IMG/VR virus record: IMGVR_UViG_3300031260_000082
Span: 1-31,627 of that record
Origin: a virus
Taxonomy: Duplodnaviria > Caudoviricetes
Strand: one strand, 5' to 3'
DNA length: 31,627 nt
Shown: in pieces, positions 1,343 through 30,720 of the stretch
Numbering within the stretch: position 1 is the first letter of the stretch
Layout: the number at the start of each line of letters is the position of its first letter
The notes under the pieces: generated by a model
Database searches by the model: none
What the model was told of the DNA's origin: nothing
Seen by the model: the letters and a program-made list of their open reading frames with translations, nothing else
Program-made: the position numbers and the translations under genes

Positions 1343-1597
1343 ATGGCCGTTTTGACGAACACCCAACTAAAAGCCATTCGGGAGAATCTGGACCGCCATA
1401 AAAGTTCAGGCAAAATCCCTCATGGTTATCCCGTTGCACTTGTGACGGACCTTCTAGACACCTTAGAAAAAATGCGACAACGAAAGAAAACTTTCCAACA
1501 CCTAGCAGAACGTCGCGCTAGGTATCTAGCACAAATCTTTTCTATTTCCTCGCGAGCAGTAGGCGAAAACACCGACAGCGCTGAGGAACTATGGTGA
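1343..1597 (+). CDS. Hypothetical protein (84 aa)
   Basis: GAGG SD, starts 1 nt after the lysozyme stop, co-oriented in the operon. Confidence 0.7.
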   Translation: MAVLTNTQLKAIRENLDRHKSSGKIPHGYPVALVTDLLDTLEKMRQRKKTFQHLAERRARYLAQIFSISSRAVGENTDSAEELW

Positions 1598-1611
1598 AAA
1601 ATCAACCACAG
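1589..1611. promoter_or_regulatory. 23-bp palindromic repeat, copy 1 (CTATGGTGAAAAATCAACCACAG)
   Basis: Contains the TGA stop at 1595-1597; its end runs into the AGGAG SD of the 1623 gene. Confidence 0.75.
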
Positions 1612-1622
1612 GAGACCCCAAA

Positions 1623-1973
1623 ATGGAAGAAAGAGAACTCCTCGAACAAGAATTGCGCCAGGTATGGACTCGCATAAAACAAGTCCAAGCACTTCTTGAC
1701 CCGTTGAGAAAAGAACTTTTCACGCTCCAAGAAAAGCACAAGAAACTTTCTGCTCGCTACGAAGAGCTCCAACGGAAAAGCGTGAAAATCACGATTGTAA
1801 AACAGCCTCGAGTAGAAAAACCCAAGAAAGTAGAAAGTGAGTTGTTGGATATACTTCGAGGCCTTACTCAAGCGGAATTGCAAAAAATATGCCAAACCAT
1901 CCATGAACAAGCCAATCCGGATGAAGCCATGGAAATTGACACAATTCAATTGGATGATACATTTTCCGCTTGA
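1623..1973 (+). CDS. Hypothetical coiled-coil protein
   Basis: AGGAG SD; Leu/Glu/Lys heptad pattern in the N-terminal half. Confidence 0.75.
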   Translation: MEERELLEQELRQVWTRIKQVQALLDPLRKELFTLQEKHKKLSARYEELQRKSVKITIVKQPRVEKPKKVESELLDILRGLTQAELQKICQTIHEQANPDEAMEIDTIQLDDTFSA

Positions 1974-1998
1974 CAAACCCCCGCAAAATTGATAAGCG
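1970..1998 (+). promoter_or_regulatory. Putative sigma70-type promoter, TTGACA-N17-TAAGCG with extended TG
   Basis: Perfect -35 at 1970-1975, TG at 1990-1991, same layout as the 4327 site, embedded in an imperfect inverted repeat at 1970-2009. Confidence 0.5.
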
Positions 1999-2060
1999 GG
2001 AATTGTCAAAGGCAATGGAAGGGAACAAACCAAAAACCATCAACCCAAAGGAGGCCTAAA

Positions 2061-2402
2061 ATGGCAACGTCCGTAACCGCAACGAAGAACTCTCGCTCTC
2101 TTACTGTTGAGTACAACTTCGGCGAGAACCTCCAGGAAGCTGTAAAGCTATTCGGCGAGAATGTAGTTTTTCAAAACGCCATTCAGTCAATGAAGATTTC
2201 CCTGCAGGCCCTCATCCGCAGGGGATTTGACCAGGGCTTGGACGATGCGGAAATCATCACACGAGCCCAGCAGTGGAAGCCTGGCGTTTCTGCCGGTCGC
2301 TCTGCCGCCGACCCCATCCAGGCGGTCCTGTCCAAGTGGCGCACTCTGCCCGAAGATAAGAAGGCAGAACTCCTGCGCCAGCTCAAGAGCATGGCCAACT
2401 AA
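2061..2402 (+). CDS. Hypothetical protein (113 aa, MATSVTATK...)
   Basis: Strong SD AGGAGG at 2049-2054 places the start at ATG 2061 rather than 1989; followed by a terminator-like hairpin. Confidence 0.8.
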   Translation: MATSVTATKNSRSLTVEYNFGENLQEAVKLFGENVVFQNAIQSMKISLQALIRRGFDQGLDDAEIITRAQQWKPGVSAGRSAADPIQAVLSKWRTLPEDKKAELLRQLKSMAN

Positions 2403-2410
2403 ACAAATTT

Positions 2411-2452
2411 CCCGAAAGGAGCGAGCTTCCCTTCCCTCGCTCCTTTTTCGGG
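2411..2452 (+). terminator. Rho-independent terminator-like hairpin
   Basis: AAAGGAGCGAG / CTCGCTCCTTT stem with a 10-nt loop and T run, extendable by CCCG/CGGG. Confidence 0.75.
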
Positions 2453-27478: not shown

Positions 27479-27487
27479 TTTTTCCTC

Positions 27488-28978
27488 CTACGCACAACGC
27501 CAGTCAGTTAGAGGCTCGTCGTATTCGATATCCTTCAGCAACGGGTCGTCTTCAAAAGAAATATCATCTTCATCCGGAGCTTCAAAGTAACGTTCCCCAA
27601 TATCTAACAGCTCAACGATATAAGCAAACGCATCCATAATATCCCAGCGTTTAGCTCGCGGAAAAGCCATCAGTTGAGCCTCAAGCCCTTTGCAAGCCTC
27701 GCGCTTATGCCACACAAGCCCTTGGCGGTAATATGGAACCAACGCTCGAACACGTTGCTCTTTGGATTGAGCATTCACTCCACCGCGAGCTTTTAGTTCA
27801 ACAAACTCCAAATGGTACAATCCGCGACGAGAGATTTCATTTTTTATCGGCTGAGAAATAAACTCATTCAGAGATGTTACTTCAACAGCTAAAACACGCG
27901 CTCCAAAACGCATGCACATATCAAGCGCGGCAGAGTAAAGCTCATCAGGATGCATCTTCCTGGCATCAACATCCCGGACATAAAGAGCGTTTCCTTTAGT
28001 ATCAATCCCCACACAAACAATAGCGGAATCCGCTGAGTGCATGTTTGTAGTTTTCGCCGGGTCAACAATCACAACATGTTCGAGTTGTTTTCCCTGAAGG
28101 TCGGATTCTTCATAGTATTTGAAATACTGTTGCTTGAACGCGGCTACGCTAGTGGCAACCGGCAAGTTACGAAACTCTCGATAGAAAACGTCGAGCATTC
28201 CCATGTCTTCGTGCTCTTTGTATACACGCTCAATATCTTCTTTTGAGATAAGTTCTGGCGCAACTGGATTCAAATCATCATCACAAAGTTCAAGACGAAC
28301 GCTTTCCCATTCTTTAGAGTCTAACAAATCTTGCAACAGCGAATCTTCGTGTTTTAGAGTATCAATATAGATAATCTTCCAATTTTTATCGAACCTCGAA
28401 GTACACTTCACAAGGTCTGCCCAGAACCAAGCCTTGCGATTCAAGCGCAACTCATCGGACTTTATTTCTTCTGGATGCTCAAGGTCATCAACAATTATGA
28501 GGTCTGGCCGAGCAGAACCAAAAAGAATGCCACGAACCTGCTGACCACACCCACGAGGAAGTACCAAAGTATCGAACCCCACCCAAGATTTCTTGGAAAA
28601 ACTTTCGTCCAGCTCGTCGGCATTTCTCGTTTTTACACTCCCAAAGATTTTCTTTATTTCAGGGCAAGTAAGAATCTCACGCTTCAAGTTTTCAGTCTGC
28701 ATCGTCGCAACATCGTGGGAAGTAGAAACCCACACAACAAAGTGATGTTTGCGAAAGAGAATGCTCTGAAGAGCTTTAGCAAGAGAGATTGAAGTTTTAC
28801 CCGACCCACGAGGCGCCGCGATAGCAACTCGCGGCGCGTCGGAGTCGATAAGCTCAAAGATGGGGTCATGCAGTTTTGCGCTAAACGGAGCATTAAAGCG
28901 TTCAGGCAAAAAAGTCTTGGCCAACAACTTTGTTGATTTACAGCATTCAATAAGAAGGTCTTCAAGAAAACTGTTCAT
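27488..28978 (-). CDS. terL: Terminase large subunit
   Basis: APRGSGKT Walker [12 protein letters not shown]alker B, nuclease IVDPA...ADSA and DIMDAFAY. Confidence 0.92.
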
Positions 28979-29760
28979 GATTGTATAAGCACTTGCGCAG
29001 AGTCTAAAGGACTTTCAATAGCAGGAGCTGGGTTTGTAGCCTTAACGGCTATAACAGTGCCAGGAGTTATCCCATCGATGATTTGTTCTATAAAAATTGG
29101 GTCCTCTCCAGAAGCTTCTCCTTCACCGACAACACTACCGTTTTTATAGAAATAATAATAAGTACTTCGACTAAAACGCGCTTTCATTTTTACGCTACCA
29201 GAAAGCTCCAGTCGAAAAGCAATTCCTAAATAAAAACCATTCGGATTACCGTCAATTTCTCTGTAATACGGAGCAAAGCAACCGGTTGAACCACCGAACT
29301 GGATACTGACGCCTTCATCATAAGGGGTTTGTGGGGCACCACATTGGAAAGTGGTATACGAAGCATATACAGTATCACCCGGATAAACAATATTTCCGCC
29401 ACCACTGCTCCCACTACAAGCCGCCGCTGCTCGTTCAACCGCAGCAAGCCGCGCGAGAATGTCCTGGATAACTGTCGCTTCTGGCGAACTTCCAGGAGGT
29501 CCTTGTGGACCAGGAGGACCTTGAGGTCCAGGAGGTCCTTCAGGACCGGGAGGACCAGGAGGTCCTTGTGGACCTTGCGGACCTCTAGGACCAGCTGGCC
29601 CAACAGGTCCTTGAGGCCCAGGAGGTCCCATTTCTCCTTGCGGTCCTTGAGGCCCACGAGGGCCTACTGGACCTGGAGGCCCTGGAGGCCCAGCAGGACC
29701 CTGTGGACCAGGACGACCACGAAGGTATTTAGTGTCCCGAATAAAAACACCGTCAGACAT
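28975..29760 (-). CDS. Collagen-like fibre/decoration protein
   Basis: About 26 contiguous Gly-X-Y triplets, a short coiled coil (ILARLAAVE) and a beta-rich C-terminal domain. Confidence 0.8.
29485..29718 (-). repeat. 9-bp-period collagen (Gly-Pro-X) coding repeat
   Basis: Repeated GGACC/GGTCC/GGCCC units encoding GPP/GPQ. Confidence 0.9.
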
Positions 29761-29761
29761 A

Positions 29762-30088
29762 CTAACCCTCCGAAGAAATCAGAACTAATGCAAAAGTCCG
29801 CTCGAGCATTATCATTCTTGTCGGAAGAATTAACTCACAGAAAAACATATACTCACCCGCGGGCAGTACAAACTCACCTGCCGGAATGTCACAAGTTATT
29901 TTGGATTTAGTAGTATCGATGCTAACAAAATCAGCAGTTGAGCACTGTAAAGAAATAGCACCATCAAATATGTTTTGAAAAGTGACTTTGCAGTCATTTC
30001 CATTTGAACCAAAAGCGATTCCAGTTCCTTCATATTGAGAAACGTCCCATACACGTTTGAAGTTATGAAATCGATAAGCTTGTATCAT
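29762..30088 (-). CDS. Hypothetical beta-rich protein (108 aa)
   Basis: GAGGAG SD, coupled to neighbours; LPAGEY Ig-like pattern. Confidence 0.6.
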
Positions 30089-30690
30089 TTGATTCTCCTC
30101 AAAGTGTGCCCACCATAATGGATGATGTTTGTTCTTGTCAATAGACTAAGCTGGGCCTGAAAGTTATTAAATCTTGATAAATCACCTTTACTGCATTTCT
30201 TGTGGGCTTGGTTAGGATGGTCTCTCCAAACACGTCCGACAATTGGGCAGAAAATCCCAGGTCCTTCTTGAAGCATTCTCCAAAGAAGATGCTTAGTTTC
30301 ATAACAATACTCGTAGTCTACTATTTCGTGCAAGTATTTCTGAAGCAGGCTGTTGCGAAAAACAATTACTCCGTGAAGTTCTTTTTCACTAGAAACAAAC
30401 GCTCTTTTTTCTCGAGTGTAAGCAAATGAGCATTCTGGACGCTCATTTAGTATGTGCACACAAACACTAAATGCTTGGACGTTGTAGTATAAATCATCCG
30501 GATTTGCAAATGAGACATATTTTCTGTCGCTTAAGGAAAAAGCATAAGCAAAAGATTCCCCTATTCTTCCGACTTTTCCTGGAACGACATAAACATTTTC
30601 TTCAGGAAGCATATTAGTACAACGAACAACCCAGTCAAAGGGTTCGTATGAATGTACCACCACGATATCCAAATCGTTGATGCTTTCCAT
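30085..30690 (-). CDS. Putative GT-A (family 2-like) glycosyltransferase
   Basis: AFSLSDRKYVSFANPDDLY (DxD-like), HGVIVFR, WRDHPNQAH; GT2-like layout. Confidence 0.65.
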   Translation of the reverse strand: MESINDLDIVVVHSYEPFDWVVRCTNMLPEENVYVVPGKVGRIGESFAYAFSLSDRKYVSFANPDDLYYNVQAFSVCVHILNERPECSFAYTREKRAFVSSEKELHGVIVFRNSLLQKYLHEIVDYEYCYETKHLLWRMLQEGPGIFCPIVGRVWRDHPNQAHKKCSKGDLSRFNNFQAQLSLLTRTNIIHYGGHTLRRIK

Positions 30691-30697
30691 AATTCAC

Positions 30698-30720
30698 CTA
30701 TGGTTAAAAATCAACCACAC
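30698..30720. promoter_or_regulatory. 23-bp palindromic repeat, copy 6 (CTATGGTTAAAAATCAACCACAC)
   Basis: Fills the gap between the 144-aa gene stop and the AGGTG SD of the glycosyltransferase gene. Confidence 0.8.

Follow-up and report, generated by a model that had tools for sequence, protein, structure and literature searches.

Dispersed 23-bp palindromes in a podophage family and the ParB-methyltransferase fusion that very likely reads them

Introduction

Clamp proteins of the ParB family can take on roles other than partition. KorB occupies 12 sites on RK2, has a small locking partner in KorA, and can act from an OB site more than 1 kb away (PMC11790492), and BisD of ICEclc slides about 50 kb from two sites and activates promoters (PMC12409273). 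At the level of sequence recognition, residue R173 of Caulobacter ParB bonds a guanine of parS, and the Gln that Noc carries at that position faces an adenine (PMC7383237). Fusions of ParB to N6N4-methyltransferases are frequent in phages and prophages, where their function is unexplained and an anti-defence role has been guessed (PMC12704722); beta-class methyltransferases are themselves dimers (PMC7544214). Dispersed dyad repeats are also on record in Cluster O mycobacteriophages, which carry more than 30 unexplained 17-bp copies (PMC4351075). Here we describe six 23-bp near-palindromes dispersed over IMG/VR record IMGVR_UViG_3300031260_000082 and a fusion of ParB, helix-turn-helix (HTH) and methyltransferase domains, encoded in the same record, as their very likely binder. 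The window, as we call the whole stretch analysed, is the complete record of 31,627 nucleotides (31.6 kb), a fragment of a podophage genome with convergent arms.

Results

The six near-palindromes of the window share a fixed 10+3+10 geometry. They were located by consensus search and position weight matrix (PWM):

1589..1611: site 1, overlapping the stop codon of the 1343-1597 gene and entering the Shine-Dalgarno sequence of the 1623 gene
5172..5194: site 2, between the Sak4-like ATPase gene and the SSB-like gene
11069..11091: site 3, overlapping the stop codon of the primase (DUF3987) gene
17753..17775: site 4, immediately upstream of the gene for a 2125-aa virion protein
23136..23158: site 5, directly after the hairpin that trails the major capsid gene
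30698..30720: site 6

An earlier note on this DNA had reported the palindromes, and all six copies were verified at these coordinates. With up to three mismatches allowed, the consensus given there matched exactly these six places in the window (12 strand matches), against a mean of 0.01 expected by chance from 100 dinucleotide shuffles. A symmetric PWM scored the sites at 27-31 bits and the next best position at 11.1 bits; in leave-one-out scoring the sites reached 24-29 bits and the best non-site 10-12. No comparably scoring match lies elsewhere in the window. A weak site-like sequence at 14534, near the middle of the 2125-aa gene, scores 11 bits, which is chance level.

The description of the sites as gene-junction elements proved accurate. 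Every site centre lies 19-32 nt upstream of a start codon, and positions within 45 nt upstream of a start make up just 4.5% of the window. Four sites (1589, 11069, 17753 and 30698) touch a stop codon and five run into a Shine-Dalgarno motif of AGGAG/AGGTG type, both as claimed. Spacing is fairly even, as had also been said, with gaps of 3583, 5897, 6684, 5383 and 7562 bp (coefficient of variation, CV, 0.23; p=0.005 versus uniform placement). The central A-tract does face either strand, and we refine its length to an A/T tract of five bases. The sequence of site 1 is the same in a near-relative, contig G002, and a seventh site occurs past the end of the window in contig G004, whose capsid protein is 97% identical.

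The fusion gene and a small gene upstream of it were annotated as follows:

6120..7439, plus strand: ParB-N / HTH / beta-class N4-N6 DNA methyltransferase fusion, 439 aa (Pfam, AlphaFold2, Foldseek, covariation)
6174..6392, plus strand: ParB nucleotide-binding (CTPase-fold) domain, aa 19-91 (Pfam, motif conservation)
6498..6587, plus strand: HTH, aa 127-156, with the codon of H141 at 6540-6542 (model, covariation)
6795..7385, plus strand: methyltransferase domain, aa 226-422 (Pfam; DPPY ahead of FxGxG, the beta order)
5686..5925, plus strand: 79-aa protein with an N-terminus labelled ribbon-helix-helix (RHH)-like by eye (locus co-occurrence)

Pfam matches of the fusion are ParB_N (2e-17) and N6_N4_Mtase (4e-23). 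Its AlphaFold2 model (pLDDT 82.7, pTM 0.58) places the HTH helices at 130-137 and 141-156, and Foldseek matched the model to CcrM, RsrI, N4CMT, Noc and ParB, with about 190 columns aligned to Noc/ParB. The closest solved structures to the N-terminal domain are Noc and ParB. Motif order, with DPPY before FxGxG, assigns the methyltransferase to the beta class, and the predicted fold is CcrM/RsrI-like. The 79-aa RHH-like protein has no Pfam match and no family match.

Relatives of the phage carry comparable arrays. In a first set of 28 contigs (window included), examined whole or in large part, 24 have a 23-bp palindrome family, and arrays as such are thus conserved in related phages. Near-complete genomes hold 7-20 copies each, usually with a wide score gap to background, and the array consensus differs from phage to phage. 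The counts over 225 sites given below leave out G002 and G004, which are near-duplicates, and G023, which has a single site; they retain G031, a degenerate family with a narrow score gap (19.5 versus 15.9). Arrays are lacking in G009, G022, G039 and G041. Contigs G022 and G039 do not span the fusion region. In G009 the flanking SSB, 5909-like and PolA genes are present, and the fusion gene, the RHH-like gene and the array are all absent.

A second search, seeded with the fusion protein, returned 160 loci, which overlap each other and the first set. A motif filter fixed before the covariation test was passed by 81 of 111 loci of at least 6 kb and by 51 of 59 loci of at least 15 kb; the 30 loci of at least 6 kb that failed it were not counted. 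Removal of redundancy above 85% identity left 69 fusion proteins, of which 17 come from the first set and 52 were newly found. Across them the three CTP-binding boxes, Box I, GxxR and Box III, hardly vary: the GxxR residues G52/R54/R55 occur in 68 of 69 (one gap) and Box III E85/E88/N89 in 69 of 69. The catalytic motif residues D231, P233, Y234, G396 and G398 are likewise found in 69 of 69, and the RHH-like gene accompanies the fusion in 66 of the 69 loci.

Covariation between protein and site singles out the fusion as the probable reader of the palindromes. The telling residue is 141, second in the recognition helix, whose link to base 6 was first noticed in the initial alignments. When base 6 was called G if at least half of a genome's half-sites carry G, His or Arg at residue 141 and G at base 6 were both present in 22 of the 69 fusions and both absent in 45, with one exception each way (for the history of this rule, see Discussion). 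His alone, scored in the 52 proteins found after the hypothesis, gives p=2.7e-5. On a tree built from the methyltransferase domain only, base 6 changes 14 times and the residue-141 class 13 times. Among the 14 independent pairs with unlike base 6, concordance holds in 13 and one is tied, with no discordant pair. Ranked by excess mutual information over 421 columns, H141 comes first for base 6 (0.62; next 0.23), S142 for base 7 (0.58; next 0.27) and S140 for base 8 (0.40; next 0.34). Bases 1 and 2 track lineage markers instead of the recognition helix.

Three control families, the RHH-like, 2061 and 5909 proteins, show no covariation with bases 6-7: for base 6 their maxima are 0.19, 0.26 and 0.11, against 0.63-0.75 for residue 141 in the same subsets. 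Controls approach the fusion at base 8, and the link between S140 and that base is therefore weaker. Helix conservation (Gly138 in 54 of 69, Ser140 in 52 of 69) aligns the family's G138-x-S140-x141 with Caulobacter ParB G170-K171-S172-R173, as mapped by residue spacing, and the single Gln141 protein (L164) has A at base 6. Among loci that failed the motif filter, the 14 longest were re-examined and mostly hold AT-rich or degenerate 23-25-bp families; by eye they obey the rule, with Arg accompanying G6 in L193 and Ala, Pro, Asp or Asn occurring without G6. Four His141 genomes (G014, L131, L154 and L197) have both G6 and T6 among their half-sites (50-75% G) and look like specificity switches under way.

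Because of this covariation, the flat control families and the joint absence of both genes and the array in G009, we consider the gene 6120 product very likely to be the binder of the palindromes. Comparative sequence data of this kind support the proposal of a parS-like dimeric DNA-binding site with the ParB-HTH-methyltransferase as candidate binder; they do not favour the second candidate put forward, the RHH-like protein. That protein travels with the fusion gene without setting site specificity, and is a possible partner.

The motif itself belongs to phages of this family. In 596 Gb of prokaryote genomes the window consensus found 18 scattered matches and no host array, and the sole contig with two matches is from a phage of this family. 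A motif that is phage-specific disfavours a host factor as binder, a reading we rejected on these grounds. A likeness of the 15-bp core to Fis sites was also considered and was set aside when the motif turned out to be phage-specific.

Both mismatch patterns and site orientation point to double-stranded DNA as the functional form. Among 185 strand-assigned sites, transcript-strand arm mismatches are G-T in 62 cases and A-C in 68 (p=0.66), and central tracts rich in A number 86, those rich in T 74. Since G-T and A-C mismatches are nearly equal in number there is no wobble bias, and the sites behave as duplex DNA; for want of such bias we rejected an RNA-hairpin reading. Promoter function fares no better. 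Sigma-70-like promoters are not enriched at sites (19 of 225, against 67 of 744 control junctions), with the proviso that the host consensus may differ, and over positions 1-18500 of the window they number 23 against 18.0 expected. A promoter-operator reading was rejected for this lack of enrichment, and virion RNA polymerase promoters were rejected as the 2125-aa protein has no polymerase match. The earlier preference for a dimeric DNA-binding site over a promoter or RNA stem is thus upheld. Perfect palindromes are avoided: shuffled half-sites predict 32 among the 225 sites, where 9 occur, and 30.6 among the 246 sites of the 52 new loci, where 5 occur. This three- to six-fold deficit, seen across 21 genomes and the 52 new loci, arises mostly through base pair 3/21; whole-site copying, avoidance of strong hairpins and functional asymmetry are all possible causes.

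Sites keep out of genes and spread over the genome. Coding interiors hold just 14 of the 225 sites though they make up 51% of the sequence, an enrichment between genes. In all 16 of the 16 genomes, spacing CV is lower than the random mean, and the median distance from any base to the nearest site is 0.7-2.2 kb. A site deeper than 300 nt within the gene occurs in 8 of the 17 giant virion genes, and some sites lie 1-5 kb inside, as if long gaps were filled. The position after the capsid gene, that of site 5, is the best kept in the family (16 of 21 genomes), and other positions turn over between phages. In 18 genomes, the 120 nt ahead of the fusion gene never hold a site (0/18).

Genes expected of a partition system were sought and not found. 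Neither ParA nor an integrase was seen in the 33 window proteins or in 79 of the 111 listed proteins of two complete genomes, in which one AAA_25 protein gave sub-cutoff ParA matches only. The fusion begins at the CTPase fold, without an N-terminal ParA-binding motif. Given the missing ParA-binding N-terminus and the absence of ParA and integrase from the scanned proteins, partition is unlikely.

The plus strand of the window encodes replication genes (ligase, exonuclease, Sak4-like ATPase, SSB-like, ParB-methyltransferase, UDG-PolA and DUF3987 primase), and the minus strand SU10-type capsid, portal and terminase. Among named records the nearest is Desulfofustis phage LS06-2018-MD01 (capsid 50%, fusion 39%), a metagenomic genome with a host inferred via CRISPR spacers (PMC10370329); the portions of the pink-berry papers available to us (PMC9296519, PMC10370329) yielded no methylome or palindrome data for MD01. 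A genome bin titled Dehalococcoidaceae contains a 10-kb contig (L275, L292) that belongs to this phage family (terminase 50-58%) and has two sites almost matching the window consensus, which is a weak host hint or a case of misbinning. In the left arm the highest-scoring sigma-70-like promoter (10 of 12), at 1936-2061 on the plus strand, stands ahead of the conserved 113-aa gene at 2061; the nearest site is about 330 bp from this promoter. On the minus strand, the 2125-aa virion protein (11365-17742) has no Pfam, PHROG or PDB match and an Atlas similarity of 0.93-0.94 to LPD38/LPD-type proteins, which serves as a lead only. A collagen-repeat tail-fibre-like gene at 28975-29760 (minus strand) accounts for the 9-bp tandem repeat at 29474-29755.

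Two further observations concern the sites and the fusion family. The hairpin after the major capsid gene (window 23136-23186, minus strand) can pair through its 5' side with the left arm of the site, and the extended hairpin recurs in L008, L018 and L026 despite their different site sequences; such pairing might reflect an RNA switch, or it might be left over from template-switch copying. Genomes G001 and G011 each have a further ParB-HTH protein, a shorter paralogue that lacks the methyltransferase and whose recognition helix differs. Methyltransferase-less paralogues were annotated at these positions:

L056:16759-17508, minus strand: methyltransferase-less ParB-HTH paralogue
L062:3245-3985, plus strand: methyltransferase-less ParB-HTH paralogue

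Discussion

By comparing arrays and fusion proteins across a phage family, we have very likely identified the protein that reads the six palindromes of the window. The domain fusion itself was already known. A literature search, which largely left subscription journals outside, found no paper describing DNA sites of these fusions.

We lean towards a mechanism in which the six palindromes would be cognate sites and parS-like loading points for the 6120-7439 fusion, and a nucleotide-gated clamp would slide from them and methylate the phage genome in cis; taken whole, this scheme is in our view somewhat more plausible than not. Site-stimulated CTP binding, clamp closure and sliding would follow the biochemistry of ParB, Noc and KorB. 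The methyltransferase dimer would replace the C-terminal dimerisation domain of ParB as the bottom of the ring, as beta-class structure suggests: because these enzymes are dimeric, the methyltransferase could close the ring in its place. Speculatively, the purpose would be to mark progeny DNA as self, or to shield it from host restriction, with host DNA left alone. Whether a CTP-gated methyltransferase ring that loads only at the phage's own 23-bp sites, placed so as to reach all of the genome, marks that genome in cis and gives each phage a private self mark, its address of helix plus 7-20 sites having been re-coded at least a dozen times, we regard as evenly balanced.

Several results weigh against this proposal. 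Spacing reaches p<0.05 individually in just 8 of 16 genomes under a uniform null, or 10 of 16 under a junction null, and the genomes are related. As many as 117 of the 225 sites lie within 80 nt of gene starts, a placement that also fits regulation, as does retention of the post-capsid position. Distant fusion carriers (G041 and the cultured phages Mel-JY34 and VS-ABTNL-3) lack a clear palindrome family at widths of 14-29 and gave marginal matches. The covariation rule was originally drawn for His, Lys and Arg; Lys141 goes with T6 (17 of 18), so a Lys-to-G6 rule was rejected and the rule narrowed to His/Arg after the data were seen. Sites are not fully orientation-free, as A-A mismatches exceed T-T on the transcript strand (91 versus 45), an excess that probably stems from the right arm also serving as a purine-rich Shine-Dalgarno sequence. 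From the literature, N6N4-methyltransferase fusions were among 50 proteins chosen and are not named among the 11 nucleotide binders in the accessible part of that report (PMC12704722), and a phage ParB that activates a T-dioxygenase works in vivo without its NTP residues, according to the sections available (PMC13229309).

The same binder might serve other ends. The main rival is a transcription regulator like KorB or BisD: the clamp would repress or activate distant phage promoters, the RHH-like protein might lock it, and methylation would be secondary. KorB with its KorA partner and long-sliding BisD are precedents, sites do concentrate at gene starts, and the RHH-like gene and fusion are lost together in G009; we nevertheless hold it unlikely, as sites are not enriched near sigma-70-like promoters (with the same proviso on host consensus), positions turn over between phages, some sites lie far within a giant gene, and the methyltransferase active site, intact in essentially all 69 proteins, is not needed by a regulator. 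Even spacing across both arms, the kinship of the N-terminal domain with Noc and ParB and the methyltransferase-less paralogues of G001 and G011 would also suit a structural clamp that coats or organises replicating phage DNA (Noc-like occlusion, protection or packaging hand-over) with methylation incidental. Conservation of the methyltransferase, the missing ParA-binding N-terminus and the lack of ParA or integrase in the scanned proteins make this rather improbable. Much the same low probability attaches to a binder that does not slide, in which the site would tether or allosterically activate the enzyme and methylation would stay local, at or beside the palindromes. Here the dioxygenase-activating ParB and the unreported nucleotide binding of N6N4 fusions count in favour; near-invariance of the CTP-binding boxes speaks against it, and point marks, unlike spreading, would not be expected to go with even spacing across the genome.

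Readings that dispense with the fusion as binder fare worse. That the RHH-like protein, the 2061 protein or a host factor recognises the sites would account for the co-occurrence of the RHH-like gene with the array and its absence from G009, and is very improbable given control families that are flat for bases 6-7, the few scattered matches in prokaryote genomes and the phage-specific motifs. Least credible are hairpins of RNA or single-stranded DNA acting as processing sites, translation switches or virion RNA polymerase promoters. The fixed arm geometry, the abutment of five of the six sites on Shine-Dalgarno motifs, the post-capsid hairpin, which in several phages is able to pair with the left arm, and the avoidance of perfect palindromes are all compatible with them; they are opposed by the near-equal mismatch counts, by base identity that follows a protein helix, and by a 2125-aa protein that has no polymerase match and may resemble LPD-type virion proteins.

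For ParB-methyltransferase fusions, whose function has been unexplained, these results offer a concrete candidate target on DNA and a rule that links residue to base, together with dozens of natural pairs of protein and site in which orthogonality could be tested. The family amounts to a natural experiment in which a protein and ten to twenty dispersed sites switch specificity together. If the sliding mechanism were true, a DNA-modifying enzyme would be limited to one replicon by address and not by target sequence, which would matter for phage counter-defence and could be put to use in site-loaded methylation.

Among dispersed phage repeats, Cluster A stoperators share with the palindromes that many short, mostly intergenic sites are scattered over a phage genome (PMC4351075). 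The analogy drawn in the earlier note is nonetheless a poor fit, since stoperators lack symmetry and follow the direction of transcription (PMC4351075), whereas the window sites are dyads that face either way. The repeats of Cluster O mycobacteriophages come closer in being dyads with an A/T centre; theirs are 17 bp with no binder named in the text available (PMC4351075). Corndog gp90 (L295:2425-3933, minus strand), which has ParB_N, a weak HTH and no methyltransferase match, may be the binder of those repeats in a cultured phage. The phage ParB-N6N4-methyltransferase fusions already described have the same domain fusion, presented in the accessible part of the report without DNA site, recognition rule or mechanism (PMC12704722).

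KorB-OB of RK2 resembles the present system as a ParB-family clamp on a mobile element with a non-partition role and about a dozen dispersed sites (PMC11790492), and BisD-bisS of ICEclc as a ParB-family clamp with its own sites and an extra effector domain (PMC12409273). In the phages, by contrast, the effector is a DNA methyltransferase, and no enrichment of the sites near sigma-70-like promoters was seen, with OB itself able to act from more than 1 kb away. With ParB-parS and Noc-NBS the fusion shares the ParB N-terminal fold plus HTH, a palindromic site, and the place of the specificity residue in the recognition helix with its Arg-G / Gln-A logic (PMC7383237). Unlike parS, which is 16 bp, the phage sites are 23 bp and dispersed over a lytic-type genome. 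A methyltransferase stands where ParB has its C-terminal dimerisation domain, the motif that binds ParA is missing, no ParA was seen among the proteins scanned, and base-6 specificity has switched about 14 times inside one phage family. The fusion and its array are thus not a ParABS system, though DNA recognition would work like that of ParB, Noc and KorB.

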